The position numbers were made by a program, and so were the translations under genes. Of a stretch of DNA of 64,000 nt, positions 1 through 41,967 are shown piece after piece (positions within the stretch are counted from its first letter, which is position 1; the number at the start of each line of letters is the position of its first letter). This DNA comes from Escherichia coli O127:H6 str. E2348/69 (GTDB lineage Bacteria; Pseudomonadota; Gammaproteobacteria; Enterobacterales; Enterobacteriaceae), in the NCBI RefSeq assembly GCF_000026545.1, contig NC_011601.1; one strand, 5' to 3'. The notes beneath the pieces were generated by a model. The model was not told the DNA's origin and searched no databases. It worked only from the letters and a program-made list of their open reading frames with translations.

Positions 1-60
1 TTAAGCGAAGTCATCCACGAAGCAGCAATGGCCTTGAATAATAAAGCATTACACGGATAA
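1..60 (+). CDS. Possible 3' end of an upstream gene truncated by the window edge (frame 1 ends ...LSEVIHEAAMALNNKALHG, stop at 58-60)
   Basis: Open frame from position 1 to TAA at 58-60, 21 nt before the RBS/ATG of the next gene; too short to identify; a different frame also ends at 39-41. Confidence 0.25.
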   Translation, partial: LSEVIHEAAMALNNKALHG

Positions 61-81
61 CACATACCACTGAGGGAATAT

Positions 82-1251
82 ATGAATTTACATGAGTATC
101 AGGCCAAATCGTTACTGGCTGGCATGGGGATGCCGTGTCCAAAAGAGATAGCCATCCAACAGATTTCGCAACTGGCAGATGCCTGGCAACATATTGCTTG
201 CCCGAGTAAAGGCGCGGTACTTAAAGCGCAGGTACATGCTGGTGGGCGCGGTAAAGCTGGCGGCGTAAAAGTGCTTAAGCAGCTGCCGGAAGCACAGGCT
301 TTTGTACAGCAAATGTTGGGATCGCAACTGGTGACTTATCAGACCGGGCCAGAAGGACAGTATGTCAGCAGTATTTTACTGTGCGAAAACATTTATCCGG
401 TACGCCAGGAACTCTATTTTGGCATGGTGGTGGATCGTGAAAGCCAGCGGGTCACGTTTATTGTCAGCCCGGAAGGTGGTGTGGAAATTGAAAAAGTCGC
501 CCATGAGACACCGGAGAAAATCAGCAGTGTCAGCATTGATCCACTGACAGGCGTGCAGCCTTGCCATATCCGAGAAATGTTTGCTGTTCTGCAACTGGAA
601 CACGGACTATTTGCTGCCTTTAGTCGCCTGGTTAATCAGGCGTGGAAAGCCTTTAACGAACTGGATTTTGCCCTGCTGGAAATTAACCCTCTGGTGTTGC
701 GGGAAACGGGCGAATTTATGTGTGCAGACGCGAAAGTATCGCTGGATGATAACGCGCTGTATCGTCACCCGGAACTCCAGGTGCTACGTGATGAAACCCA
801 GGAAGATCCACGCGAAAGCCAGGCAGCGAAGCTTGATCTTAATTATGTCTCGCTGGACGGAAATATCGGCTGCATGGTCAATGGTGCAGGGCTGGCTATG
901 GCAACCATGGACATCATCAAGCTATACGGTGAACAACCCGCAAACTTCCTGGATGTTGGCGGTGGCGCAACCCAGGAGCGCGTCAGTGAAGCCTTTCGGC
1001 TGATTGTTTCCGACGGCAAAGTGAAAGCCATTCTGGTTAATATTTTTGGTGGGATTGTCCGTTGCGACATGATCGCCAGAGCCATTATTCATGCTCTGAA
1101 TGAGGCCCGTATCACCCTGCCTGTCGTGGTGCGTCTCTCCGGTAATAACGCTGCCGAAGGGCAGCGGTTACTGGCAGAAAGTGGCCTGACGGTGGAAGCC
1201 GTCAATTCTCTGGATGATGCCGCTAAACGCATCATTGCGTTACTGAATTAA
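82..1251 (+). CDS. Succinyl-CoA synthetase beta subunit paralogue (ADP-forming, SucC-like), accessory island
   Basis: 389 aa; N-terminus MNLHEYQAKSLLAGMGMP is the classic SucC start; ATP-grasp-like sequence throughout; GAGGGAA RBS upstream; immediately followed by a SucD-like gene. Confidence 0.9.
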   Translation: MNLHEYQAKSLLAGMGMPCPKEIAIQQISQLADAWQHIACPSKGAVLKAQVHAGGRGKAGGVKVLKQLPEAQAFVQQMLGSQLVTYQTGPEGQYVSSILLCENIYPVRQELYFGMVVDRESQRVTFIVSPEGGVEIEKVAHETPEKISSVSIDPLTGVQPCHIREMFAVLQLEHGLFAAFSRLVNQAWKAFNELDFALLEINPLVLRETGEFMCADAKVSLDDNALYRHPELQVLRDETQEDPRESQAAKLDLNYVSLDGNIGCMVNGAGLAMATMDIIKLYGEQPANFLDVGGGATQERVSEAFRLIVSDGKVKAILVNIFGGIVRCDMIARAIIHALNEARITLPVVVRLSGNNAAEGQRLLAESGLTVEAVNSLDDAAKRIIALLN

Positions 1252-1263
1252 CAGGAGGTTAAG

Positions 1264-2136
1264 ATGAGCGTTTTGATCAACAAACACACGCGGGTACTGG
1301 TGCAGGGCATTACCGGCAAAAACGGCACATTTCATACAGAGCAGGCTATTGCGTATGGCACGCAGATTGTGGGTGGAGTGACGCCAGGTAAGGGCGGGCA
1401 ACGGCATCTGGATCGCCCGGTTTTTGATTCAATGAAAGAAGCGATGCGACAAACTGAGGCTGATGCCAGCGTGATTTATGTGCCTGCACCGTTTGTGCTG
1501 GATTCTGTTGTTGAGGCTATTGAAGCTGGCGTCAAATTGGTTGTGGTGATCACTGAAGGTGTACCGACACTGGATATGGTGAAAGTTCGTCGGCTGCTTG
1601 ACTGCCACCCGGATGTGCGGCTGATTGGGCCAAACTGCCCAGGAGTTATCACGCCGGGTGAGTGCAAAATCGGGATTATGCCTGGTGAAATCCACCGCCC
1701 AGGGCGTATTGGGATTGTTTCCCGCTCCGGTACATTAACCTACGAAGCTGTAGCGCAAACCACGGCGCTGGGACTTGGGCAATCCACCTGTATTGGTATT
1801 GGCGGCGATCCGGTTCCGGGGACTAACTTTATTGATGCGCTGCGTTTATTCGAAAATGATCCGCAAACAGACGCGGTAATTATGATCGGTGAAATTGGTG
1901 GTAATGCGGAAGAACGGGCCGCGGAATTTATTCGTCATGAAATGAATAAACCGGTCGTAGGTTATATTGCCGGTGTTACTGCACCAAAAGGAAAACGCAT
2001 GGGACACGCCGGAGCCATTATTTCTGGCGGTAGCGGCAGTGCGGAGGATAAATTCCGGGCGTTCGATAAAGCAGGCATGGCATGGACACGAAATCCAGCA
2101 TTACTTGGCGAAACGTTATGGAATGTTATTAAGTAA
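1264..2136 (+). CDS. Succinyl-CoA synthetase alpha subunit paralogue (SucD-like)
   Basis: 290 aa; CoA-binding N-terminus ([15 protein letters not shown]) and phospho-histidine loop GHAGAII; AGGAGG RBS at 1254-1259; 12 nt after the beta subunit stop. Confidence 0.9.
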
Positions 2137-2153
2137 TCCATAAATGAATATCA

Positions 2154-2179
2154 AGGGAGCATATCGCTCCCTTTTTTTA
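2154..2179 (+). terminator. Rho-independent terminator after the sucCD-like pair
   Basis: GC hairpin (GGGAGC...GCTCCC) followed by a run of seven T. Confidence 0.55.
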
Positions 2180-2212
2180 TCTGTGTGGTAAGGGAATCAT
2201 CTTTTAATAACT

Positions 2213-2230
2213 GTGCGGAAAACCGCGCAT
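2213..2230. promoter_or_regulatory. Palindrome TGTGCGGAAAACCGCGCA, candidate enhancer (UAS) for a sigma-54 activator
   Basis: Near-perfect inverted repeat about 65 bp upstream of the sigma-54 -24 element at 2292; sigma-54 activator sites are typically palindromic and upstream. Confidence 0.3.
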
Positions 2231-2291
2231 AAAATAAAAAGGATAAATAGCTAACTCATTAAATAACAAAGCGTTATTAAAAAATTAAAGA

Positions 2292-2307
2292 TGGCATAGC
2301 TCCTGCA
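2292..2307 (+). promoter_or_regulatory. Sigma-54 (RpoN) -24/-12 promoter, TGGCAT-N5-CTGCA, for the transporter/dehydrogenase genes
   Basis: GG at 2293-2294 and GC at 2305-2306 with exact 10-nt spacing; about 40 bp upstream of the transporter start; a sigma-54 activator is encoded nearby (4921-6279). Confidence 0.55.
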
Positions 2308-2347
2308 ATAGCCAGGCAGGTTTTTTATTTTTCACAATGAGGTGAAT

Positions 2348-3847
2348 ATGTCATCAATATCCCATGGCGCACCACAAAAGCGTCGAATTATCCCTAATCC
2401 CGGCCTGTGGTTGGCGATCATTGCCGGAATTATTATTACCCTTCTGCCACTGGGCGATACCTTGCCCGTCGCCGGACAAAATATGATCGCCATTCTGGTG
2501 TTTGCCATTATTGTCTGGATCAGCGAAGCGATGGATTACACCGCCAGTGCAATTGTTATTTCCGCACTGATTATCTTTATGGTTGGTTTTGCCCCGGATA
2601 TGAATCACCCGGACACGATCCTTGGCACCGCGAAAGCGCTGAAAATGACTCTGTCGGGTTTTTCTAATTCTGCTCTGGCGCTGGTGGCAGCAGCAATGTT
2701 TATCGCGGCGGCAATGACCATTACCGGGCTGGATAAACGCATTGCGCTGTTTACTATGTCGAAAATAGGTGCCAGCAGCCGCAGCATTATTATCGGTGCC
2801 ATTGTGGTGACCATCGTCCTGAGCCTGGTCGTACCCAGTGCCACTGCCCGTACGGCTTGCGTGGTGCCGATTATGATGGGGGTCATTGCGGCATTTAAGG
2901 TGGATAAACATTCACGTTTAGCGGCGTCAATGATGATTGTTATCGCCCAGGCGACCAGTATCTGGAAAGTTGGTATTCAAACTTCGGCGGCGCAAAACCT
3001 GCTTTCTATCGGTTTTATCAATAAAACTTTCGGCGCCGGGCATTCTGTCAGCTGGCTTGACTGGCTGTTAGCGGGCGCGCCCTGGAGCCTCACCATGTCG
3101 GTGATCCTCTATTTCCTCGCACGTAAATTGTTGCCGCCAGAAACGGAAGCTGTTGAAGGGGGGAGCGAGGCCATTAAAAAAGCACTCGCAGAGTTAGGGC
3201 CAACCACCGGTAAAGAAAAACGCTTGATCGGTATTTCGCTGTTGTTACTGCTCTTTTGGTCTACTGGCGGAAAATTGCACAGTATTGATACCACCTCTGT
3301 CACCCTTGCCGGACTGGCGATTATGTTGCTGCCAGGCATCGGTGTAATGAGCTGGAAAGAGGTCGAAAAACGTGTGCAGTGGGGCACGTTGCTTATGTTT
3401 GGTATTGGTATCAGCCTGGGGTCCACGTTGCTTGATACACAGGCAGCTTCATGGATGGCGAACTATGTGGTGAAAGGTTTTGGTCTCGATGGCTTGCCAT
3501 CATTAGCCATCTTCGCGATTCTCGCCGCTTTCTTGATAATCATTCACCTGGGGTTTGCCAGTGCCACTGCGCTAACTGCCGCATTGCTGCCCATCCTGAT
3601 TAGCCTGTTAAGCAGTCTGCCGCCAGAACTCGGCGTTAACCCGGTCGGCATGACCATTCTGCTCGCCTTCAGTGTCAGTTTTGGCTTCATCCTGCCGATT
3701 AACGCGCCACAAAATATGGTGTGTATGGGTACGGATACCTTCACGCCACGCCAGTTTACCCGTGTGGGACTGTACCTGACGGTGATCGGCTACCTGTTGT
3801 TGCTACTGTTTGCCGCCACCTGGTGGAAAATTTTAGGTCTAATGTGA
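2348..3847 (+). CDS. Anion transporter, probably divalent anion:Na+ symporter (DASS/CitT-like) family; candidate alpha-ketoglutarate/dicarboxylate importer
   Basis: About 499 aa, highly hydrophobic with many predicted TM helices; ATG at 2348 preferred over in-frame GTG at 2342 (AGG RBS at 2340-2342); family assignment from overall resemblance, not a search. Confidence 0.75.
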   Translation: MSSISHGAPQKRRIIPNPGLWLAIIAGIIITLLPLGDTLPVAGQNMIAILVFAIIVWISEAMDYTASAIVISALIIFMVGFAPDMNHPDTILGTAKALKMTLSGFSNSALALVAAAMFIAAAMTITGLDKRIALFTMSKIGASSRSIIIGAIVVTIVLSLVVPSATARTACVVPIMMGVIAAFKVDKHSRLAASMMIVIAQATSIWKVGIQTSAAQNLLSIGFINKTFGAGHSVSWLDWLLAGAPWSLTMSVILYFLARKLLPPETEAVEGGSEAIKKALAELGPTTGKEKRLIGISLLLLLFWSTGGKLHSIDTTSVTLAGLAIMLLPGIGVMSWKEVEKRVQWGTLLMFGIGISLGSTLLDTQAASWMANYVVKGFGLDGLPSLAIFAILAAFLIIIHLGFASATALTAALLPILISLLSSLPPELGVNPVGMTILLAFSVSFGFILPINAPQNMVCMGTDTFTPRQFTRVGLYLTVIGYLLLLLFAATWWKILGLM

Positions 3848-3858
3848 GGAAACCAACG

Positions 3859-4932
3859 ATGTCATTACAAATTGCTGTTGAAAAAGTGCGTTGGTTAGCT
3901 GCCGGGCTGCTGGAACTTAATGGCTGTGATGCCGATATCGCTCAGGATGTGGCGGAACATATGATTGAAGCGGAACGTTATGGTTTTGCCAGCCACGGCG
4001 TCACGCTGCTACCGAAATATCTGGAAAATATCGCTCGTGGCGATGTAACCGCGAATGCCCGCCCGGAATGCTTAACAAGTGAAGGTAATTTACAACGTTT
4101 TCATGCCCACAATGGCTTTGGTCAACACGCCGGAAAAGTGGCGGTAAATGCTGCCATCGAACAAACAAAACACCGCGGTTTTTGCCTGTTAACGTTGTGC
4201 CATGCGCATCATTTAGGGCGTATGGGGCATTACGGGCAAATGGTTGCTGATCAAGGCCTGGCGATGCTGGCCATGAGTAACGTCACCGGGCGTCCGGCAC
4301 TGGTCGCCCCGTGGGGCGGTGCGGAACCGCGTATGACCACTAACCCTTTCTGCTTTGCCTGGCCGTTCAGTGATGGGCGTCCGCCGATTCTGGTTGATTT
4401 TGCCACCAGTAGCATGGCGCTAAATAAAGCACGGGTAATGTCGTCCACCGGGAAGCAGGCCGCGCCGGGACAATTGATCGATGCACAGGGGAATCCAAGC
4501 AATGATCCTGGGGTGTTATTCAGCAATCCTCCAGGGGCGTTACTGCCATTTGGTGAGCATAAAGGATTTGGCCTGGCACTGATGATTGAAATGATGGCGG
4601 GGATCTTATCTGGTGGTGACACGATCGCCGAAGATCATCAGACGGATGGATCTGCGCATAATCATCTTTTTGCGTTGATTATCGATCCTGATCAATTCAC
4701 CGATCTGGCAGGGGAGAAAGGGCAGTTCTTTGCGGATTATCTGTTAGCTACGCAGCCTCAACCTGGCGGCAATCCGGTGATTTACCCCGGTATGCCAGAA
4801 GCTGCCAACCGGGAACGCAATGCGAAGATGATTACGATCCCGGTATCATTCTGGTCCTGGGTAGTTGAACATTACGCCCGCAAAGGTATCGATTTGGGGT
4901 TACATCCTCAGGAATCAGCATTAGCTGGATGA
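3859..4932 (+). CDS. Ldh2-family (malate/L-lactate/ureidoglycolate dehydrogenase-like) NAD(P)-dependent oxidoreductase
   Basis: 357 aa from ATG 3859, with GAGGAA RBS 9 nt upstream and 11 nt after the transporter stop; the track ORF 3721-4932 has an N-terminal extension overlapping the transporter and is rejected; conserved HGxxxxPKY-type region (FASHGVTLLPKY). Confidence 0.75.
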   Translation: MSLQIAVEKVRWLAAGLLELNGCDADIAQDVAEHMIEAERYGFASHGVTLLPKYLENIARGDVTANARPECLTSEGNLQRFHAHNGFGQHAGKVAVNAAIEQTKHRGFCLLTLCHAHHLGRMGHYGQMVADQGLAMLAMSNVTGRPALVAPWGGAEPRMTTNPFCFAWPFSDGRPPILVDFATSSMALNKARVMSSTGKQAAPGQLIDAQGNPSNDPGVLFSNPPGALLPFGEHKGFGLALMIEMMAGILSGGDTIAEDHQTDGSAHNHLFALIIDPDQFTDLAGEKGQFFADYLLATQPQPGGNPVIYPGMPEAANRERNAKMITIPVSFWSWVVEHYARKGIDLGLHPQESALAG

Positions 4933-6279
4933 TTCTGGTCGATAAACTTGCGGTTGAATCTGATGTTTGTTGAGTTTGTCATATAAAGTCTTGCGCGGCA
5001 GCTGTAATAGCCGCGCTGTCAAACTGACCTGGCCTTCCGTTTGTCGCAGCATATCTTCGATTAACTTTTTCTCGAAAGCATCAATGCAGGCGGTAAGGCC
5101 ACTCTCTTCTTGCTGAGTCATTGGTACTGGCTGGTGGTGGGTCAGTAAACCGAGAACAAAACGCTCTGCATTGTGTTTAAGTTCACGTACATTGCCAGGC
5201 CAACTTTGTGACTGCAACCAGGCCAGTAACATGGGAGAAATATCAGGCAGAGGACGATTATATTTTTGTGCCGCCTGACTGGCGAACCAGTAAAACAGTT
5301 CAGGGATATCTTCTCGTCGTTGGCGTAGAGGTGGAATATTCAGGCTAACCACATTCAGACGATAATAGAGATCGAGACGAAACAGATGTTCTTCGCTGCG
5401 ACGCAGTAAATCTTCCTTGGTCGCTGCAATAACACGGCAATTCACCGGAATTAATTGATTGGCACCTAATCGTTCAATGGTTCTTTCCTGCAATACACGT
5501 AGCAGTTTTACCTGCATTCCTGATGGCATTCCCTCTATTTCATCGAGAAATAACGTACCACCATTTGCATGTTCAATTTTTCCAATACGCTTTTTAACCG
5601 CACCGGTAAATGCGCCCGCCTCATGACCAAATATTTCGCTTTCAAACAACGTTTCTGGTAAGCCTGCACAGTTTAAGGCAACAAACTGCCCCTGACGGCG
5701 GGTACTCCAGTGATGCAGCATTCTGGCGACGACTTCTTTACCACAACCTGTTTCACCATAAATAAGGACATCGGCACCGGTATCTGCGACATTAAGGATC
5801 ATTTTACGCAGTTGTTGCATCTGCGGACTACGACCAATCAGCACCGGGCCATTTTCCTGTTGCAGATTCGCCAGTAATTGCTGATTTTCTAAAACCAATC
5901 GCCGTTTTTCTACCGCTCTGGCAATAATACTCAATAATTTATCTGAGCTACTTGGTTTCTCAATGAAATCGAATGCACCATTACGCATGGCATCCACCGC
6001 CATTTCCACGTCACCGTGTCCGGTAATTAAAATAACCGGAATTTTGCTATCCATTTCGTTGATGTAACTGAGGAGCTCTAGTCCTGATATTCCAGGTAAC
6101 CTGACATCGGTCAGTATAATAATGTTGGCCTGACTTTGAATAAGGGGAATACTGTGTTCTGCATCGCAACAGGAAATAACACGATAACCAGCCAGCGTGA
6201 GCGTTTGTTCACAGGCAAAACGTACATCGTCACTATCCTCAATATAAACTATAGTAATTTCACTGGATTTATTATTCAT
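4921..6279 (-). CDS. kguR: Sigma-54-dependent response regulator (NtrC family: receiver + AAA+ sigma-54 activator + HTH); consistent with KguR
   Basis: 452 aa; receiver domain with conserved D (IIILTDVRLPG); Walker A GETGCGKE; GAFTGA sigma-54 contact motif; C-terminal HTH; stop overlaps the 3' end of the convergent dehydrogenase gene. Confidence 0.8.
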   Translation of the reverse strand: MNNKSSEITIVYIEDSDDVRFACEQTLTLAGYRVISCCDAEHSIPLIQSQANIIILTDVRLPGISGLELLSYINEMDSKIPVILITGHGDVEMAVDAMRNGAFDFIEKPSSSDKLLSIIARAVEKRRLVLENQQLLANLQQENGPVLIGRSPQMQQLRKMILNVADTGADVLIYGETGCGKEVVARMLHHWSTRRQGQFVALNCAGLPETLFESEIFGHEAGAFTGAVKKRIGKIEHANGGTLFLDEIEGMPSGMQVKLLRVLQERTIERLGANQLIPVNCRVIAATKEDLLRRSEEHLFRLDLYYRLNVVSLNIPPLRQRREDIPELFYWFASQAAQKYNRPLPDISPMLLAWLQSQSWPGNVRELKHNAERFVLGLLTHHQPVPMTQQEESGLTACIDAFEKKLIEDMLRQTEGQVSLTARLLQLPRKTLYDKLNKHQIQPQVYRPESSS

Positions 6280-8092
6280 GTTCTTCTCCCCATTCAGGCC
6301 AGGTTAATGTCATTACTGCGCCGCCTTCAGGATGATTACTGGCGTGGAGTGCGCCGTTCGAATTTCGGACAATTTCGCTGACTATTGCCAGTCCCAACCC
6401 CATTCCTCTACGTTTAGTGGTAAAAAATGGTTCAAATATGCGATCGACAACTTCAGGTGCAAAACCGCCACCGCTGTCTTTAATGGTAATAATAACTTTG
6501 TTATTTGCCTGGCGAATGGCGATATCCAGTCGTTTGTAAGAGCTACCTTCCATAGAATCTAAGGCGTTGCTAATTAAATTACTGAATATCTGTTCAAGAC
6601 CGAGCTCATCGCAATTGACAAATAACGGCATGGATGGGGCTTTTATTCGTCGCTCAATATTATTTTTCTCCATGCTGTGATTAAGTAACGCCACGGCGCT
6701 ATACATCACTTTGATGACATCGGCAGAACCTTTAGGTACGCGATGGCGCGAGGCAAATGCTTTAAGTTCGGAAATGAGCTGCGTCATCCGCTCAATCACT
6801 GAAATAATGTGTTTCAGATTCTGTTCAACCTGCGGATACATCTCTTTTTTTAGCATAGTACGCGCGTTATCAGTAAGTGCGTGAATGGCGGCTAACGGTT
6901 GATTTTGTTCATGGGCAATTTCGGTTGCCATCTGTCCAAGCGCCGCCAGTTTGCTGGACTCTGCCAGTTCACTACGCGTAATTTGTAATACTTGTTCAGC
7001 CTGACTGCGCTCTTTTATCTCCTGTATTAATTTTTGATTGATCAATTCCAGGGCAGATGTACGCTCTTTAACCTGTTTCTCTAATGTTTCATTCGCCAGT
7101 GTTAATAATTGTTGTGCATGAGATCGCATTCTCCAGTATTTAATAAATAACAAAAACAGCAGGTAAATAATTAGCGTAATGACTAACGAAATAGCCCATG
7201 ACCAGTACAGGTTATCTAAGGGGACCATAATTGTCATTTTCCAGTTAAATTCTGGAATGGCTATTTGTTGCGTATAATATTGCGGGAATAAACAGAGTTG
7301 TTCTTTTTTATCTTTCAGGAAAGTAAAATTGCTCACGGTATAACAGGGATAATAATCCGCCGGTAAAAGATTGTCGAGACTATATTGGCGGGTAGATTGT
7401 AGTTTTTGTTTTGCCTGAACAGGTAACGGTTGCAGTGTTCGCATTCGCCATGGCGATTTTGAACTTAAAAATATAATCCCATGTTCATCATTCACGATAA
7501 TATTTTCAGGACCTTCGGCCCATGCTTTTTCAATTTCATTAAGACTTATTTTTACTACTACAACACCGACAATTTTTCCTTTATCTTTTATACTTGTAGA
7601 GAGGAAGAATCCCGGTGTATTCGTAGTGCTACCAATACCGTAAAAGCGTCCATTTAAGCCAGACATGGCGTGTTTATAATAGGGGCGATAGCTATAATTT
7701 TGCCCTACATAGCTGCCGGGGTCCTGCCAGTTGCTAGAAGCGATGGCCTTACCTTGGGTATCCAGAATAAATATTGCTGCGGTTTTGAGTTGAGTATTGA
7801 AATGTGCAATTCGTTGATTGAGTTCGCTGGACATCATATCGTCAGGCGTAATTACCGCCTGACGGATGATATGGTCTGTTGAGAGCATATAGGGTAAAAC
7901 ATAAAATTGCTCGATGGTGGAATATAATGTGGACTTATACATTTCAAGCCGCATTTTATCGGTACCGGACAAGGTATTAAAACGCAAGTGCAAAAAAGCG
8001 ATTGAAACCGCGAGCATGATAAGAAAAAGTGAAATGCTTGTAATGTGAAATCGCCATTTGTTCTTAAATATATAATTCCACGATATTTTCAT
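6272..8092 (-). CDS. kguS: Membrane sensor histidine kinase with periplasmic sensing domain; consistent with KguS
   Basis: 606 aa; two TM segments flanking a roughly 260-aa periplasmic region; H-box (ATEIAHEQNQPL) and HATPase_c motifs; 8-nt overlap with the downstream regulator gene. Confidence 0.8.
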   Translation of the reverse strand: MKISWNYIFKNKWRFHITSISLFLIMLAVSIAFLHLRFNTLSGTDKMRLEMYKSTLYSTIEQFYVLPYMLSTDHIIRQAVITPDDMMSSELNQRIAHFNTQLKTAAIFILDTQGKAIASSNWQDPGSYVGQNYSYRPYYKHAMSGLNGRFYGIGSTTNTPGFFLSTSIKDKGKIVGVVVVKISLNEIEKAWAEGPENIIVNDEHGIIFLSSKSPWRMRTLQPLPVQAKQKLQSTRQYSLDNLLPADYYPCYTVSNFTFLKDKKEQLCLFPQYYTQQIAIPEFNWKMTIMVPLDNLYWSWAISLVITLIIYLLFLLFIKYWRMRSHAQQLLTLANETLEKQVKERTSALELINQKLIQEIKERSQAEQVLQITRSELAESSKLAALGQMATEIAHEQNQPLAAIHALTDNARTMLKKEMYPQVEQNLKHIISVIERMTQLISELKAFASRHRVPKGSADVIKVMYSAVALLNHSMEKNNIERRIKAPSMPLFVNCDELGLEQIFSNLISNALDSMEGSSYKRLDIAIRQANNKVIITIKDSGGGFAPEVVDRIFEPFFTTKRRGMGLGLAIVSEIVRNSNGALHASNHPEGGAVMTLTWPEWGEEHE

Positions 8093-16423: not shown

Positions 16424-16888
16424 ATGGAAAAGAAATTACCCCGCATTAAAGCGCTGCTAACCCCCGGCGAAGTGGCGAAACGCAGCGGTGTGGCGGTATC
16501 GGCGCTGCATTTCTATGAAAGCAAAGGGTTGATTACCAGTATCCGTAATAGCGGCAATCAGCGGCGATATAAACGTGATGTGTTGCGATATGTCGCAATT
16601 ATCAAAATTGCTCAGCGTATTGGCATTCCGCTCGCAACCATTCGTGAAGCGTTTGGCGTGTTGCCAGAAGGGCATACGTTAAGTGCGAAAGAGTGGAAAC
16701 AGCTTTCGTCCCAATGGCGAGAAGAGTTGGATCGGCGCATTCATACCTTAGTGGCGCTGCGTGACGAACTGGATGGATGTATTGGTTGTGGCTGCCTTTC
16801 GCGCAGTGATTGCCCGTTGCGTAACCCGGGCGACCGATTAGGAGAAGAAGGTACCGGCGCACGCTTACTGGAAGATGAACAAAACTAA
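16424..16888 (+). CDS. soxR: Redox-sensing [2Fe-2S] MerR-family regulator SoxR
   Basis: 154 aa; MerR HTH N-terminus and C-terminal [12 protein letters not shown] cluster-binding motif. Confidence 0.97.
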
Positions 16889-17021
16889 AGCGCCACAAGG
16901 GCGCTTTAGTTTGTTTTCCGGTCTTTGTCTTTCTCTCTATCCCGCTGGTACACAGGAGGGTTTCCCCCGACGTCAACACACCTCATTCGAGCACGTGGTG
17001 GAGGTTCCGGTTGGTGTTGAT
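16882..17021 (-). ncRNA. ryjA: Candidate small RNA RyjA/SraL, antisense to and overlapping the soxR 3' end
   Basis: K-12 has an sRNA of about 140 nt here from memory; a TACAAT -10-like hexamer on the minus strand at 17033-17028; hairpin + T-run at 16887-16917 serves as a shared terminator; boundaries approximate. Confidence 0.4.
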
Positions 17022-22708: not shown

Positions 22709-22918
22709 GCCGAATGTAGGCCGGATAAGGCGTTATACGCCGCATCCGGCAATCAATGCCGGATGCGACGCTGTCGCGTCTTATCAGGCCTACAGCCGTT
22801 GCCGAATGTAGGCCGGATAAGGCGTTCACGCCGCATCCGGCAACCAGCGCCTGATGCGCCGCTGTCGCGTCTTATCAGGCCTACAAACCGTTACCGACTC
22901 GCATCCGGCAATTGTGGG
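22709..22918. repeat. REP/BIME cluster: two tandem units of about 92 bp plus a partial third
   Basis: Repeated GCCGAATGTAGGCCGGATAAGGCGTT...CGCATCCGGCAA...CTTATCAGGCCTAC palindromic units between yjcH and acs. Confidence 0.9.
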
Positions 22919-34177: not shown

Positions 34178-34882
34178 TTAATCCATCCGATGTTCCCCCT
34201 TTTCCATGGCGTCGCGATCAAAAAATCGCTGAATTTTTCCCTCGGACATCAATGCCGCTCGATCAGACATATGCGCGATGACATCGGCATCGTGACTGAC
34301 CAGCAGATATGTCATTTGGTGTTCCAGCTTAAGTTGATTCAACAAATTAAGGATTTCCGCTTGTACCGACATATCCAACGCCGAGGTGGGTTCATCCAGC
34401 AGAAGAAGTTGTGGTCGTAACAACAGGGCGCGAGCAATAACCACACGTTGCCGTTGACCACCGGAAAGCTGGTGTGGGTAGCGACGAGCGGCGTCGAAAG
34501 GCAAGCCAACCTGTTCCAGTGCAGTCTGGACGCGTTTTTCTATTTCTCTTTCGCCACGAATTTTGAGTGGTTCAGCCAGCGTTCGCCACAGAGTATGATT
34601 GGGATGCAACGAGGCATAGGGATCCTGAAACACCATTTGCACATTGCGGCGGAGATCGCCCTGAAAACGCATTCCTGGTTTGATGGTGTGCCCAAACAGT
34701 GACACCTGACCGTGCCAGTCGCGCTGTAATCCAGCAATTACGCGCAAAATCGTGGATTTTCCGCAGCCTGATTCGCCAATTAAACTAAATGTCTCTCCGG
34801 CATTAACCGAAAAACTGGCGGCAGAAACTGCGGTTTTCTCAGCAAAAGTCACCTGTAAGTGATTAATTTCAACAATCGTCAT
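34178..34882 (-). CDS. ABC transporter ATP-binding protein (DppF/OppF-like), accessory operon
   Basis: 234 aa; Walker A GESGCGKST, signature LSGGQRQR, Walker B LLLLDEPTSALD. Confidence 0.85.
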   Translation of the reverse strand: MTIVEINHLQVTFAEKTAVSAASFSVNAGETFSLIGESGCGKSTILRVIAGLQRDWHGQVSLFGHTIKPGMRFQGDLRRNVQMVFQDPYASLHPNHTLWRTLAEPLKIRGEREIEKRVQTALEQVGLPFDAARRYPHQLSGGQRQRVVIARALLLRPQLLLLDEPTSALDMSVQAEILNLLNQLKLEHQMTYLLVSHDADVIAHMSDRAALMSEGKIQRFFDRDAMEKGEHRMD

Positions 34883-35705
34883 GGTATTTCTCCGGCGTCA
34901 TTGCCGTCCTGTCCAGCGTCGGCAGCATCTGCCCGTAAGTTTGTGCATTTGGGCGGCAAGTCCACAGTGTGCGCGTGTAAGGATGCGTTGCTGTAGGTAG
35001 CGCAGCAGCGTGCATTTCATCCACCTTATTTCCCTGATACATCACCAGCACCCGATGGCAAAATTGGGCAACTAATGGCAGGTCGTGACTGATCAGCAAC
35101 ATTGCCATCTGACGTTGTTCACACTGGGTAACCAGCAGTTCCAGAATCTGATTACGCAGGCGCACATCCAGTGCTGATGTTGGCTCATCGGCAATCAATA
35201 CCCGGGGATCGTTGATGAGCGCAATTGCAATCATCACTCGCTGCCCCATGCCGCCAGAAAGTTCACGAGGATAGCTTTGCAGTACTCGCGTATTGAGGCC
35301 GACAGCCTGAATTGCGGTGTTTATTTTCTCTTCTTTCTCGCGGCGGTTCAGACGTTGATGGAGCGTAAGCGCCTCTTCCAGTTGCGCTTTTACTGTCTTT
35401 ACTGGATTAAGCGCGTAACGCGGATCTTGCAATACCATCGCGATATCGTTACCGCGCAACTGTTGCCATCCACGCGCGTTAAGGGTGAGTGCATCACGCC
35501 CCAGAATGTTAAGTGTGTCCGCGGTTACTACACCCGGTTTACGCACCAGCCCCATCAGGGCGCGGGCGGTCATGGACTTACCTGAACCCGACTCACCGAC
35601 CAGCGCCAGACGTTCATTGCCTAATGTAAAACTGACATTGTTGACGACCCGGGACTCCGGATAATCGACGCAGAGATTGTTGATACTAAGACGTGAGTCA
35701 GTCAT
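34869..35705 (-). CDS. ABC transporter ATP-binding protein (DppD/OppD-like), accessory operon
   Basis: About 278 aa from ATG 35705 (MTDSRLSINNL); Walker A GESGSGKS, signature LSGGMGQR; track start 35765 would overlap the upstream permease. Confidence 0.8.
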   Translation of the reverse strand: MTDSRLSINNLCVDYPESRVVNNVSFTLGNERLALVGESGSGKSMTARALMGLVRKPGVVTADTLNILGRDALTLNARGWQQLRGNDIAMVLQDPRYALNPVKTVKAQLEEALTLHQRLNRREKEEKINTAIQAVGLNTRVLQSYPRELSGGMGQRVMIAIALINDPRVLIADEPTSALDVRLRNQILELLVTQCEQRQMAMLLISHDLPLVAQFCHRVLVMYQGNKVDEMHAAALPTATHPYTRTLWTCRPNAQTYGQMLPTLDRTAMTPEKYHDDC

Positions 35706-36531
35706 GTTGAGGCTCCAGAACATCGCGCAAGCCATCACCCAGCAGATTAAAGGCCAGACTGGCAATTAAGATAATTGCGCCGGGAGCGGCGGCAATCCAC
35801 CATTGATCAAAAATGACCTGCATACCGTCGGCGATCATGGCTCCCCATTCCGCCATTGGCGGGCGAGCACCAAGCCCAAGAAAACCCAGGCCAGCAGCCG
35901 CCAGAATGATACCCGCTAAATCCAGCGCCAGACGGACAATGGCAGATGGCAGGCACAATGGCAAAATATGACCAGCCAGCAGACGCCTGCCGCGGATGCC
36001 CATCATTTCTGCGGCGGCAAGATAATCACTGTGTCGCAGACGTTGGATCTCACTCCGTGCCTGACGCGCATAAGCAGGCCAGGTGGTTAATGCCAGCGCC
36101 AGTGCGCCGTTAACCAGCCCCGGCCCCAGCATGGCAACAAAAGCAAAAGCCAGAATTAAACGCGGCATTGACATTACTACGTCAGTAAAACGCATCAGCA
36201 CGCGTTCCAGCCAGCCGCCGTAGTACCCGGCTAAAATGCCAATCAGCAGACCGACCGGGAGTGTAATGATTGTCACCAATGCCACCAGCCCCAGTGCCGG
36301 GCGGCTGCCGTAGATTAAACGTGAAAGTAGGTCTCGCCCGTAACTGTCAGTGCCGAGCCAGTGCTGACGACTCGGTGCTTGTAACCGCGCCGCCGCATCC
36401 TGCCAGTTAGGATCGTGAGGTGCCAGCCACGGCGCGAAGAGCGCAATTAGCATCAATAACAGGATAATTATCAACCCGCAAAACGCGGCGGGTGAATGGC
36501 GTAAACGGCGTAAAAAGAGAAACATCGGCAT
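35698..36531 (-). CDS. ABC transporter permease (DppC/OppC-like)
   Basis: 277 aa; six predicted TM helices; ends 2 nt after the next gene's start codon. Confidence 0.85.
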   Translation of the reverse strand: MPMFLFLRRLRHSPAAFCGLIIILLLMLIALFAPWLAPHDPNWQDAAARLQAPSRQHWLGTDSYGRDLLSRLIYGSRPALGLVALVTIITLPVGLLIGILAGYYGGWLERVLMRFTDVVMSMPRLILAFAFVAMLGPGLVNGALALALTTWPAYARQARSEIQRLRHSDYLAAAEMMGIRGRRLLAGHILPLCLPSAIVRLALDLAGIILAAAGLGFLGLGARPPMAEWGAMIADGMQVIFDQWWIAAAPGAIILIASLAFNLLGDGLRDVLEPQHD

Positions 36532-37580
36532 CAGCGTAACCTCGGATCGGTCAGCCGGACCAGCAGGTCGGTTAAGTTATTTATCAACACAAAGCAGACG
36601 CCAATCAGCAGCGTTCCTCCCATGATTGCTGTGGTATCACCCGCGAAGAGCGCTGTAGTGAGGTAGCGCCCAATACCTGGCCATGAAAAGACGGTTTCTG
36701 TCAGTACCGCGCCTTCCAGCATTGATGTATAGGCGAGGGCGATAACGGTGAGTAAGGTGCCGCGAATGTTGGGTAAAACATGACGTAGCAAAATTGTCAT
36801 CTCGCTGGCCCCTTTGGCGCGCGCCAGCAGAATATATTCTTTATTCATTTCGCCAAGACAGACGGAACGAGTCAGGCGCGTAATACTGGCGAGCGAGAAG
36901 TACGCCAGTAATAAAACCGGAAGTATCAAATGGTTGATTGCATTGGTAAATGCCTCGCGATCGCCAGAAAGCCACGTATCAATCAGCGCAAATCCGCTGC
37001 GGGGTTCTATGGTGAATTGATAAATATCATCCAGCCTGCCCGGCCCGGCACTCCATTGCAGTCTGGCGTAGAACAGCGCCAGCATCAGCAGACCAAGCCA
37101 AAAAACAGGGACGGAATTTCCCAGTAGAGTTAATGTTCGCACGGTGAAATCCAGCGGAGAACCGACATAACGGGCGCAAAGTACACCCGCAATGACGCCG
37201 ACAACAGCACCGACAATAAGCGCCAACGTTGCCAGTTCAATGGTCGCCGGGAATGCTGATAGCAAGTCCTGGAGTACCGGTTGCCCGGTGGAGCTGGCGA
37301 TGCCCAGATCGCCGTGTGCCAGATTCATCAGGTAATGCCAGAACTGGACGGCTAACGGTTGATCCAATCCTAACTGGTGGCGTACCTGATCATAGGTGGA
37401 CTGGCTGGCGTGATCGCCAACGATTTGTAGTACGCGATCGACCGGTGAGAGAGCCGAAAGCGCAAAGGTAATCAGCAGCAGGCCGAGTAGCGTCAGAGCA
37501 ACGGTAAACAGCCCTTGCAACAGCGCGAGCAGAGGGCGTTTGCCTCGCCATCTCGCGCGAGTGGAAAAAACGACAGACAT
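36531..37580 (-). CDS. ABC transporter permease (DppB/OppB-like)
   Basis: About 349 aa from ATG 37580 (GGAAAG RBS); in-frame ATG at 37673 would add 31 aa and lacks an RBS; start uncertain. Confidence 0.75.
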   Translation of the reverse strand: MSVVFSTRARWRGKRPLLALLQGLFTVALTLLGLLLITFALSALSPVDRVLQIVGDHASQSTYDQVRHQLGLDQPLAVQFWHYLMNLAHGDLGIASSTGQPVLQDLLSAFPATIELATLALIVGAVVGVIAGVLCARYVGSPLDFTVRTLTLLGNSVPVFWLGLLMLALFYARLQWSAGPGRLDDIYQFTIEPRSGFALIDTWLSGDREAFTNAINHLILPVLLLAYFSLASITRLTRSVCLGEMNKEYILLARAKGASEMTILLRHVLPNIRGTLLTVIALAYTSMLEGAVLTETVFSWPGIGRYLTTALFAGDTTAIMGGTLLIGVCFVLINNLTDLLVRLTDPRLR

Positions 37581-37679
37581 GATCTTTCCATACAGTGATA
37601 AATCAGCGGCTGGCCTGCAATACAGGCCAGCCCTGGTACCGCGCCCGGTAATATGGCTGGACGCGAGTTGCATACAGGG

Positions 37680-39248
37680 TTATTTGGTTACCTGATCAAA
37701 CCAGACCATATCGGCATTCAACCCTTGTTGATACCCCTGCACATTATCACGCATGACAATTTGCGTTTTGCCTTGATCAATAAAGACATACGGGGAACTA
37801 CGTTGTAGTTCTTGTTGCATTTTCTTATACAAATCAAGACGTTTAGCGCTATCAGGTTCAGCGATGGCCGCCAGCGTTTCTTTGTTCAGTTCCGGGATTT
37901 TCCAGCCGTTTAACCCGGCAACGGTGCTGGATTTGCCATCGTTATAGGCGAAAGAGCTGGCGTTGGAATGTGCGTCAAAATAATCAGGCAACCACATACG
38001 AATGGCCCCCTGATGCTGGTGGGCGCGAACGCGAGAGTAGACCTGACTCCCTGCGGCTGGCAGCAAATCAACTTTTACACCGCCCTGAGCAAAGCTGGCC
38101 TGAATTGACTGCGCGATGGTAATAAATGGCGGTTTATTTTCGACATCAAGCGTGAAGTGCGGGTCTTTGATTCCGGCTTTAGCGAGGATCTCTTTTGCTT
38201 TGGCTGGATTAAAGGTAAACGGTGTTTCTTCCAGTGCTCCAGGAAAGCCCACGGGCAGGAAACTTTGATGGGTAAAATATTGTCCTTTTAAGAGATTTTT
38301 GGTGATGCCGTCGTAATCGACCAACCAGCGAGCGGCCTCCCAGAACGCAGGATTACTCATCAGCGGGTTATCCTTGTTACCGGTATTGAAGGCCAGGTAG
38401 TTCTGTTCGGCGGAGGCAATGCTCATCACTTTTACGCCAGGTTTACCCTGTAATGCATCGATTTGATCGGCTCCCAGATCACGAGCCATATCAGCATCAC
38501 CTTGTTGGATCAGCAGGCGACGCGTTGCCGGATCGGGAACATTTTTGATGATGACGTTTTTCAGTTTCGGGGCGCCGGTTGGTGAGCTGGCGTTGGCTTC
38601 CATCACGATGGCCTGATGCGGTTGGTAAGTACGCATTTTAAACGCGCCGCTGCCAGCGGAATGCATCTTCAGCCATTCATTACCAAAGTCGTTATTTTTG
38701 GCGTTTGGCGCAACCAGCTTCTCGTCAACAATTGAGGCGATTGGTGTGGAGAGAATATTCAGTGCCAGCGCCGGGCTGACGTCGGCACTCCATTGCACCT
38801 GGACGGTATGGTCATCGATTTTCTTCAACTGGCTGGCGATATTTTCCGGCTGCCATCCCAGCACATTGAGAATAAACGCACCGGATTTATTCAGTGTGAC
38901 AGCCCGGACATAAGAGTAAATCACATCTTCCGGGCGTACCGGATTACCAGAGGCAAATTTCGCATCGCTTTTCAGTTTTATGGTTAGCGTTTTGGCTGCT
39001 GGGTCAGCCTGCCAACTTTCCGCCAGAATCGGAGTGATTTTCGTCGGATCATTACGGTCCGGTTGTACTACGCGTTGATACAGACTTGGTACAGTCTGAA
39101 TACTTGAGAGTTCATTAGCTTCTGCCGGGTCCAGACTCACAATATCATCCAGTCCCTGGGCTACAACCAACGTATTAGGCGGTGTAGCGGCAACGGTTGT
39201 GGCGGAAATTGTGCTTAAAACCAGTAAAGGTAATAGTTTTTTAATCAT
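37680..39248 (-). CDS. Periplasmic substrate-binding protein, family 5 (peptide/nickel/opine type)
   Basis: 522 aa; signal peptide MIKKLLPLLVLSTISATTVAA; size and composition typical of DppA/OppA-like proteins; clearly not NikA-like at the N-terminus. Confidence 0.8.
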   Translation of the reverse strand: MIKKLLPLLVLSTISATTVAATPPNTLVVAQGLDDIVSLDPAEANELSSIQTVPSLYQRVVQPDRNDPTKITPILAESWQADPAAKTLTIKLKSDAKFASGNPVRPEDVIYSYVRAVTLNKSGAFILNVLGWQPENIASQLKKIDDHTVQVQWSADVSPALALNILSTPIASIVDEKLVAPNAKNNDFGNEWLKMHSAGSGAFKMRTYQPHQAIVMEANASSPTGAPKLKNVIIKNVPDPATRRLLIQQGDADMARDLGADQIDALQGKPGVKVMSIASAEQNYLAFNTGNKDNPLMSNPAFWEAARWLVDYDGITKNLLKGQYFTHQSFLPVGFPGALEETPFTFNPAKAKEILAKAGIKDPHFTLDVENKPPFITIAQSIQASFAQGGVKVDLLPAAGSQVYSRVRAHQHQGAIRMWLPDYFDAHSNASSFAYNDGKSSTVAGLNGWKIPELNKETLAAIAEPDSAKRLDLYKKMQQELQRSSPYVFIDQGKTQIVMRDNVQGYQQGLNADMVWFDQVTK

Positions 39249-39533: not shown

Positions 39534-39569
39534 ATAAAAAAATCCGGAAACAGAGAGTCGTTTCCGGAT
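39534..39569 (-). terminator. Rho-independent terminator of fdhF
   Basis: Hairpin ATCCGGAAAC-AGAGAGTC-GTTTCCGGAT followed on the minus strand by a U-run. Confidence 0.65.
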
Positions 39570-39622
39570 TGATACAAAGGCGTTGGGTAATATCGCCGCT
39601 TTTAACGTGAGTTTACGCGGTA

Positions 39623-41770
39623 TTACGCCAGTGCCGCTTCGCGCAGGCGAGTTTTCAACTTGTTGTACTCGTCAATCACGTACTGCTCGGCGGCGCGCTG
39701 ATCGGCGATCGGCTCGACGCGCACGGCGCAGTATTTGTATTCCGGCGTTTTCGTAATCGGGCTTAAGTTTTCGGTAACCAGCTCGTTACAGGCACCAATC
39801 CACCACTGGTAGGTCATGTAAATCGCCCCTTTGTTCGGACGATCGCTGACCTGCGCACGGGTGATAATTTTGCCTTTACGCGAGTGCACCCAAACCAATG
39901 CCTCATCTTCAATACCCAGACGTTTGGCGTCTTCGGTATTGATTTGTGCGTAGCCAGGTTCATCAGCCAGCGCCGCCAGTGCCGCACAGTTACCGGTCAT
40001 CGAACGGCAAGAGTAGTGACCAACTTCACGCACCGTTGACAGTACCATCGGGTACTCGTCGGTGAGTTTGTCGATTGGCGCGACCCAGTCGCAGGTGAAG
40101 AACTGCGCCAGACCGTTCGGGGTATCAAACTTCTCTTTAAACAGATAAGAAGTCCCCTGATCGGCATCTGAAGTATCCCGGCAAGGCCACTGAATGAAGC
40201 CCAGTTCGCCCATTTTTTCGTAAGTCGCACCGTAGAAATCCGGGCACAGATGACGCAACTCATCCCAGATCTCCTGGGTGTTGTTGTAGTGCATCGGATA
40301 ACCCATACGGGTGGCGATTTCACTGATAATCTGCCAGTCCGTTTTCAGATCCCATTTCGGTTCAACCGCTTTGAAGAAACGCTGGAAGCCACGGTCAGCC
40401 GCAGTAAACACGCCTTCATGCTCGCCCCACGACGTTGACGGTAAAATAACATCCGCCGCCGACGCGGTTTTGGTCATAAAGATGTCCTGAACGATGACCA
40501 GTTCCAGATCTTCAAAGGCTTTACGTACTGCCGACAGCTCCGCGTCAGTTTGCAGCGGATCTTCGCCCATAATGTACGCGGCACGCACTTCGCCATGCGC
40601 TGCGCGGTGCGGCAGCTCGCTGATGCGATAGCCGGTATGAGCAGGCAGGCTTTCCACGCCCCAGGCTTTGGCGAATTTCTCGCGGTTAGCCGGATCTTTC
40701 ACGTACTGGTATCCCGGATACGTATCCGGCAGCGCGCCCATATCGCAGGCACCCTGCACGTTGTTCTGACCACGAACCGGGTTTACACCCGCATGCGGCT
40801 TACCGAGGTTACCAGTCAGCATCGCGAGGCTGGTCAGAGAACGCACGGTTTCCACGCCCTGGTAGAACTGGGTTACACCCATGCCCCACAGGATGGCGGC
40901 GCTTTTCGCCTGGGCATACATCCGCGCCGCCTGACGAATCTCACTGGCGCTGACGCCGGTGATATCTTCAACCGACTCCGGCGTGTAGCCTTCAACGATT
41001 TTACGATACTCTTCAAAGCCTTCTGTACGGGAAGCGACGAAAGCTTTGTCGTACAGGTTTTCTTCAATAATGACATGGCCCATCGCATTCAACAGCGCGA
41101 TGTTCGAGCCGTTTTTCAGTGCAATGTGCATGTCAGCAATGCGCGCGGTTTCAATTTTGCGCGGATCGCAGACGATAATTTTCGCCCCGTTACGTTTAGC
41201 GTTAATTACGTGATTCGCCACGATTGGGTGGGAATCCGCCGGGTTGTACCCGAAAACGAACACTAAATCGGTATTATCAATTTCGTTAATAGCATTGCTC
41301 ATTGCGCCATTACCGACCGATTGGTGCAGACCTGCAACCGATGGGCCGTGTCAGACACGAGCGCAGCAGTCAACGTTATTGGTACCAATAACGGCGCGCG
41401 CAAATTTTTGCATTACATAGTTGGTTTCGTTACCCGTACCACGCGAGGAGCCGGTCGTCTGGATGGCATCCGGACCGTACTTCTCTTTGATGGCGCTCAG
41501 GCGCTCGGCAACGTAATTCAGTGCCTCATCCCAGGAAACAGGTTCGAGTTTGCCGCCACGCTGGCGACGGATCATGGGGGTTTTCAGGCGCGGGGTCAGG
41601 ATCTGGGTATCGTTAATGAAATCCCAGCCATAATAACCCTTCAGACACAGGGTACCCTGGTTGGTTTTCCCCTGCGCTGCCTCCGCCCGGACGATTTTGC
41701 CGTTATCGACGACCAGGTTGATTTTGCAACCTGATGCGCAATAGGGGCAAACCGTGACGACTTTTTTCAT
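39623..41770 (-). CDS. fdhF: Formate dehydrogenase H (FdhF), selenocysteine-containing molybdoenzyme
   Basis: 715 codons with in-frame TGA at 41351-41353 (codon 140, selenocysteine); the two track ORFs 41351-41770 and 39623-41302 are one gene; N-terminal Fe-S cysteines CPYCASGC. Confidence 0.95.
41305..41350 (-). other. SECIS mRNA hairpin directing selenocysteine insertion at the fdhF UGA
   Basis: Minus-strand sequence immediately 3' of the UGA reads CACGGCCCATCGGTTGCAGGTCTGCACCAATCGGTCGG, a stem-loop matching the fdhF SECIS as I remember it. Confidence 0.8.
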
Positions 41771-41821
41771 CGGTCTCGCTCCAGTTAATCAAATCACGCA
41801 TACGCGCTCTCGACTACAGTA

Positions 41822-41837
41822 TGCATCTTTTATGCCA
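41822..41837 (-). promoter_or_regulatory. Sigma-54 promoter of fdhF (minus strand TGGCAT-N5-ATGCA)
   Basis: Reverse complement of 41822-41837 is TGGCATAAAAGATGCA with GG-N10-GC spacing, about 55 bp upstream of the fdhF ATG. Confidence 0.75.
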
Positions 41838-41967
41838 CATTTTATTTGGGGTCATTCCCTGATATTACGGGCACTATTTATTCAAAACTCTGACGAAAAA
41901 CAGGCTGTCGTCAGTTTTGACGTGACGAAACGAAATACCGCGTGACAGCCATCACGCGGCAGACATT

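Follow-up and report, generated by a model that had tools for sequence, protein, structure and literature searches.

Does the TGA codon within fdhF of Escherichia coli O127:H6 str. E2348/69 end a gene, or does it belong to the coding sequence? In the stretch of 64,000 bases analysed here (hereafter the window), a plain scan for open reading frames (ORFs) splits fdhF at this codon, and a preliminary description drawn from the letters alone had proposed that the in-frame UGA is a selenocysteine codon accompanied by its SECIS hairpin and not the mark of a pseudogene. This proposal was upheld by the identity of the read-through protein, by a match to the SECIS_2 family, by the sel genes of the genome and by the conservation of the element. 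We conclude that positions 39623-41770 of the minus strand almost certainly carry an intact fdhF in which UGA140 is recoded as selenocysteine (Sec) through SECIS and SelB. The UGA codon and SECIS of fdhF are already known, and constitute a canonical, experimentally characterised case of recoding.

A single reading frame encompasses both ORFs

The window corresponds, at every base, to the reverse complement of NZ_CP059840.2:4456264-4520263 from strain E2348/69. The 2.2-kb region containing the gene is 100% identical to three E2348/69 records (99.4% for the next closest record), and for a 25-kb piece, 100% identity is reached by the three E2348/69 records alone (98.8% for the next closest). Translation of the whole span 39623-41770 of the minus strand yielded one frame of 716 codons including the TAA stop, in which the sole internal stop is the TGA at codon 140 (41353-41351, minus strand), codon 716 being TAA. 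The gene and its recoded codon are as follows:

39623..41770, minus strand: fdhF CDS coding for the 715-aa formate dehydrogenase H (single frame, protein identity, TIGR01591 match and RefSeq annotation)
41351..41353, minus strand: UGA codon 140, read as selenocysteine (the only internal stop, aligned with a non-standard residue 140)

The list of ORFs contains the two pieces into which, according to the preliminary description, the TGA splits fdhF: an ORF of 139 aa (41351..41770, minus strand) ending in the TGA at 41353-41351, and an ORF of 559 aa (39623..41302, minus strand). Since the span 39623-41770 translates as one frame with stops only at codons 140 and 716, the two pieces lie in the same frame, as had also been claimed. 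A downstream ORF out of frame with the upstream one had been named as the observation that would overturn the selenocysteine interpretation; we looked for this, and the pieces are in frame. The 559-aa ORF begins at an internal methionine (ATG at 41302) located 17 codons past the TGA, and the 16 codons separating the TGA from this ATG are open and devoid of ATG, GTG or TTG.

For strain E2348/69, RefSeq reports one CDS of 2148 nt ('fdhF, formate dehydrogenase subunit alpha') without a pseudogene flag. The expectation that automated annotation would miscall the gene was therefore too broad: PGAP/RefSeq gives one correct CDS, but plain ORF callers do split fdhF. Each of the two pieces, in its exact 139-aa or 559-aa form, has been deposited as a protein in its own right on at least 1000 contigs; the protein clusters of the split pieces comprise 2374 (139-aa) and 11377 (559-aa) members, and the same split occurs in records of Citrobacter, Klebsiella, Enterobacter and Raoultella. 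One of the Raoultella assemblies lacks any call for the N-terminal piece of fdhF.

Sequences flanking fdhF

Four elements were found around the coding sequence:

41779..41782, minus strand: GGAG resembling a Shine-Dalgarno sequence, 8 nt upstream of the start codon (ATG at 41770; read from the sequence)
41822..41837, minus strand: sigma-54-type (-24/-12) promoter-like site TGGCATaaaagATGCA, 52-67 nt upstream of the start codon
41882..41920, no strand assigned: candidate FhlA enhancer region, lying upstream of the sigma-54-type site and containing TCAAAAC(N0-2)TGACGA twice, in inverted orientation
39541..39570, minus strand: terminator-like hairpin with a T run after its 12-bp stem, 53 nt past the fdhF stop (consensus scan only)

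In the window, TGGCAYN5WTGCW is matched by TGGCATaaaagATGCA alone; a mean of 0.66 matches is expected by chance, so that the count by itself is not significant. fdhF has been listed among the sigma-54- and FhlA-dependent genes (PMC4987338), and the position of TGGCATaaaagATGCA, a candidate promoter, fits this known dependence. The two copies of TCAAAAC(N0-2)TGACGA (41882-41896, plus strand, and 41908-41920, minus strand) are the only matches to this motif in the window; the motif was derived post hoc from the same sequence, and the estimate of its occurrence by chance is biased. No match to the published FhlA consensus palindrome CATTTCGTACGAAATG was found within three mismatches, and a generic repeat search for an FhlA enhancer returned nothing.

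The read-through product is formate dehydrogenase H

The product obtained by reading through codon 140 is identical at 715 of 715 residues to the Formate Dehydrogenase H (FDH-H) chains 1aa6, 1fdi, 1fdo, 2iv2 and 7z0t of the PDB, the search query having been written with X at position 140, where 1aa6_A also carries X. The alignment to E. coli FdhF with Sec at residue 140 that had been suggested as a check thus gave full identity, with the special residue in the predicted place: the deposited FDH-H chains contain a non-standard residue at 140, aligned with the UGA codon. In the crystal structure of FDH-H, residue 140 is the active-site residue that ligates Mo. At the protein level, there is no difference between the product encoded in the window and this Mo-bis-PGD/4Fe-4S selenoenzyme of the formate hydrogenlyase complex. 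The translation contains the N-terminal 4Fe-4S cysteine motif (Cys8, Cys11, Cys15 and Cys42), and the orthologous 139-aa piece matches PF04879 (Molybdop_Fe4S4). The NCBIfam equivalog TIGR01591 (Fdh-alpha) matched with 1089 bits (cut-off, 666.25 bits), residues 6-685 aligning with profile positions 1-672 of 672.

The alpha subunits of FDH-N and FDH-O (FdnG and FdoG) belong to the same superfamily as FdhF and share the same UGA/SECIS/SelB mechanism. Homology of FdhF to this type was detected (PDB 1kqf, E = 5e-45; TIGR01553, 247.8 bits), but the TIGR01553 score lies far under the cut-off of 814 that defines a match to that family. FdnG and FdoG are periplasmic, Tat-exported respiratory enzymes of approximately 1015 aa encoded elsewhere in the genome.

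These results bear directly on whether the UGA is a true terminator separating two proteins, namely an Fe-S protein of 139 aa and a molybdopterin protein of 559 aa translated from the ATG at 41302. Both ORFs exist, and the recoding reported in vivo for a fragment of fdhF that spans residues 130-179 is approximately 30-40% (PMC4513850), so that release factor RF2 terminates a sizeable share of ribosomes at the UGA and the 139-aa product is probably made. Against two separate proteins, however, the solved E. coli structures consist of one continuous chain of 715 residues that is identical to the read-through product and includes the 16-residue segment joining the UGA position to the internal methionine; TIGR01591 matches as a single stretch over residues 6-685; and the 16 intervening codons are in frame and conserved in three genera (see below). 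Since the continuous 715-aa polypeptide has already been crystallised from E. coli, we rejected the two-gene interpretation and consider its probability negligible.

A SECIS hairpin encloses the UGA codon

The preliminary description had recognised the stem-loop immediately 3′ of the UGA as the fdhF SECIS. A search of both strands of the window with Rfam revealed a match of SECIS_2 (RF01988) at 41358-41304 of the minus strand, extending over model positions 1-55 of 55 and scoring 87.1 bits (gathering score, 70 bits; E = 1.8e-17, computed for the whole window and both strands). The match in fdhF is far past chance, and no second SECIS besides that of fdhF was found on either strand of the 64-kb window. 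The element and its core are located as follows:

41304..41358, minus strand: SECIS hairpin (SelB-binding recoding signal), full SECIS_2 span (RF01988 match, with the same helix in the minimum free energy fold)
41323..41339, minus strand: 17-nt upper stem-loop GGUUGCAGGUCUGCACC, which forms the minimal SECIS (nt 15-31, the U of the UGA being nt 1)

The UGA is located within the 5′ arm of the hairpin. Counting its U as nt 1, nt 4-14 form an 11-nt spacer (CACGGCCCAUC) ahead of the 17-nt stem-loop, which displays a bulged U at 17/18 and a GGUC loop with G23 and U24. ViennaRNA places the bulge at U18 instead of U17, the two registers being equivalent. The anatomy of the E. coli fdhF SECIS and the SelB contacts U17, G23 and U24 have been described as they are found in the window (PMC8659212, section 13). 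The stem-loop had thus been correctly identified, with a SECIS_2 score of 87.1 bits above the threshold and with the published spacer and stem-loop. The interval given for it, 41300-41353, covers the element but misses 5 nt upstream of the UGA that are paired at the base of the Rfam model.

Comparison with known elements revealed few departures. Over 131 nt surrounding the UGA, the window is 100% identical to K-12 MG1655, the strain in which the element (Sec140 and SECIS of fdhF) was characterised, and it therefore carries the same element without any difference. The hairpin deviates from the Rfam consensus in one place only, model position 2, where the basal pair of the helix is U-G and not C-G. 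Relative to other B2 strains, most of the gene-wide difference of 0.6% falls outside the SECIS.

Folding of the sequence following the UGA had been proposed as a further check. The minimum free energy (MFE) fold does reproduce the SECIS helix, but its stability is no better than that of dinucleotide shuffles: the 54 nt originally delimited (41300-41353) gave an MFE of -14.9 kcal/mol (z = -0.01; 93 of 200 shuffles fold equally well), and the 55-nt Rfam span an MFE of -19.7 kcal/mol (z = -1.23; 25 of 200 shuffles). Stability above that of shuffled sequence was not seen for either the 54-nt or the 55-nt span, and because the energy is no better than that of shuffles, formation of a stem-loop is by itself weak evidence. 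Thermodynamics brings no independent support here; folding energy alone cannot identify a SECIS and is not a criterion that defines the family. The SECIS is identified by its match in sequence, structure and spacing, together with its identity to the characterised element.

The UGA and SECIS are conserved within E. coli

Of 5426 complete E. coli genomes, 5419 contain the 131-nt piece with the UGA and SECIS. We compared it with two control pieces of equal length from the same gene:

41270-41400: UGA and SECIS piece, at least 99% identity in 5419 of 5420 records
40470-40600: control piece of fdhF, at least 99% identity in 2836 of 5419 records
41500-41630: control piece of fdhF (N-terminal), at least 99% identity in 5301 of 5420 records

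Of the three, the SECIS piece is the most conserved, and the N-terminal region is also strongly conserved. Some of this local conservation would arise in any case, as the region encodes the active site of the protein. Among 20 evenly spaced rows, 19 (K-12 MG1655 being one of them) are 100% identical over the 131 nt. The sole divergent record, strain 14EC007, contains four changes, all at synonymous third positions. Two of them lie inside the hairpin, one converting the basal U-G pair to C-G and the other falling in an unpaired UAAU stretch.

These data are difficult to reconcile with a pseudogene created by a nonsense mutation in codon 140, an interpretation encouraged by the plain ORF scan, which splits fdhF into pieces of 139 and 559 aa, and by the public collections that list both pieces as separate proteins. 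The TGA resides in the very 131 nt that are at least 99% identical in all but one of the 5420 records, and a TGA also occupies codon 140 in Citrobacter and Raoultella, so that the stop is not strain-specific. Furthermore, the 575 downstream codons are open and encode the same residues as the crystallised enzyme, without any decay; codon 140 is followed by a SECIS; and RefSeq assigns no pseudogene flag. The pseudogene interpretation is contradicted by the conservation data and was rejected, its probability being vanishingly small.

Conservation in Citrobacter and Raoultella

The outgroups consisted only of the orthologues of Citrobacter koseri and Raoultella ornithinolytica, which were reached through the cluster of the mis-split 559-aa protein. 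Their fdhF genes share 90% (C. koseri) and 84% (R. ornithinolytica) nucleotide identity with that of E. coli, and both retain the TGA at codon 140. At the orthologous positions, SECIS_2 scored 86.3 bits in Citrobacter and 84.3 bits in Raoultella. Not one base of the 17-nt upper stem-loop, its six third-codon positions included, differs between E. coli, Citrobacter and Raoultella, and the 16 codons following the UGA are conserved and in frame in the three genera.

Gene-wide, 32% of the four-fold sites differ from E. coli in Citrobacter and 44% in Raoultella. Codons 144-155 contain no four-fold site change in either genus. The unchanged run of four-fold sites over the SECIS amounts to 13 sites in Citrobacter, the longest of the gene, and to 9 sites in Raoultella, where it is joint-longest. 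Such a pattern at synonymous sites is what should be expected of constraint at the RNA level over coding constraint, as seen in two outgroup genera only.

The selenocysteine machinery is complete in E2348/69

Neither sel genes nor tRNA genes are present within the 64-kb window. The following genes are annotated without a pseudogene flag on NZ_LT827011.1, a chromosome of E2348/69 that shows 100% identity to the window across the 25 kb compared:

3893001-3894845: selB
3894842-3896233: selA
3986720-3986814: tRNA-Sec (selC), with the anticodon TCA according to ARAGORN
1910711-1911754: selD

The preliminary description had called for selABCD elsewhere in the genome, and all four genes are indeed intact in E2348/69.

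Reading of the UGA need not in principle involve Sec-tRNA(Sec): the codon could be read through mainly by a standard tRNA, such as near-cognate Trp or Cys tRNA, and low-level near-cognate suppression of UGA occurs in E. coli. However, the genome encodes a complete and intact Sec machinery, the determinants of SelB binding and their spacing are exactly those of the characterised element, and the deposited FDH-H chains carry a non-standard residue at 140. On these three grounds we rejected near-cognate read-through, which we regard as extremely unlikely to account for reading of the codon.

Proposed recoding of UGA140

Insertion of Sec at codon 140 would proceed as established for K-12. FdhF is the formate-oxidising subunit of the formate hydrogenlyase complex. 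During its translation, the upper stem-loop of the SECIS, starting 11 nt past the UGA, would be bound by the elongation factor SelB, by analogy with the K-12 element. SelB is expected to carry Sec-tRNA(Sec), whose tRNA is the product of selC with the anticodon UCA; this tRNA would be charged with serine, which SelA would then convert to Sec using selenophosphate supplied by SelD. SelB tethered to the SECIS would bring Sec-tRNA(Sec) to the UGA in the A site, in competition with RF2, and after insertion of Sec the remaining 575 codons would be translated. Binding of SelB, insertion of Sec and competition with RF2 are inferred here from the established K-12 work on the same sequence. Experiments on the K-12 sequence, which is identical, have established both that SelB binds and that read-through depends on selenium (PMC4513850; PMC8659212).

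Because recoding reaches only the in vivo efficiency given above, most ribosomes should release a 139-aa fragment containing the full 4Fe-4S cysteine motif. It seems to us very unlikely that the fragment, instead of being waste, is stable and has its own function, such as handling Fe-S or signalling selenium status.

The case described here is textbook recoding of a bacterial stop codon, in a sequence identical to that used to work out the mechanism, and it brings no new biology. It is usable as a positive control, a real recoding signal having been recognised from raw sequence alone. Its practical value lies in the quality of annotation: public protein collections still carry thousands of copies of two artificial halves of fdhF, a gene that must be called as one selenoprotein of 715 aa.

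Distribution and annotation of fdhF

In the collection of complete E. coli genomes, a match to fdhF was missing in 7 of 5426 genomes and a single genome carried two copies, while four plasmid-labelled records also contained a match. In Raoultella ornithinolytica GCA_901420735.1, the 559-aa part is the sole called piece of fdhF, and the N-terminal part of 139 codons (positions 233-652 of L010, the stretch holding the orthologue) is left without any gene call. This uncalled part is a second type of annotation failure at selenocysteine genes. Two open reading frames from the ORF list lie antisense within fdhF in the window:

40550-41266, plus strand, antisense ORF of 238 aa
41321-41734, plus strand, antisense ORF of 137 aa

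Neither shows any sign of being a gene, and both appear to be shadow ORFs arising from coding DNA with a high G+C content.

An accessory transporter operon adjoins fdhF

34178-39248, minus strand, five-gene ABC transporter operon between fdhF and yjcO

The operon codes for a substrate-binding protein, two permeases and two ATPases. It was found in only 1043 of the 5426 complete E. coli genomes, nearly all of these carriers sharing at least 99% identity, and is thus accessory in E. coli. The operon is not known to occur in the gene order of K-12.

Other features of the window

1-8092, cluster of annotated metabolic and regulatory genes
16881-17021, minus strand, Hfq-binding small RNA sraL (Rfam RF01408, matched over its full length; score 153.3 bits, gathering threshold 39)
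22719-22790, plus strand, first of two neighbouring naRNA4 matches (RF02564, 70.7 bits)
22811-22881, plus strand, second naRNA4 match (RF02564, 73.8 bits)

The cluster at the start of the window contains additional copies of sucC, sucD and lpdA together with genes coding for a DASS anion symporter, an Ldh-family oxidoreductase, a sensor kinase and a sigma-54-dependent regulator. Uropathogenic E. coli carries an island for alpha-ketoglutarate utilisation, KguS/KguR, which this cluster probably resembles. The sraL gene is an ordinary feature for E. coli, and both naRNA4 matches, located in the acs-yjcH intergenic region, are REP/BIME-type repeats.

selC and the LEE in the source genome

Two loci of the E2348/69 chromosome record NZ_LT827011.1 lie on the stretches L005 and L007:

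3945946-3946905 (L005 40947-41906), gene annotated as 'reverse transcriptase family protein'
3986720-3988333 (L007 31721-33334), selC junction region of the annotated record

The former, outside the 64-kb window and flanked by slmA and pyrE, may be a retron. At the latter, the tRNA-Sec gene directly borders the remnant of an IS3 element and the LEE, a type III secretion island whose genes include espF, escF, eae and tir. selC is the classic insertion site of the LEE, and the tRNA-Sec gene is intact in NZ_LT827011.1.
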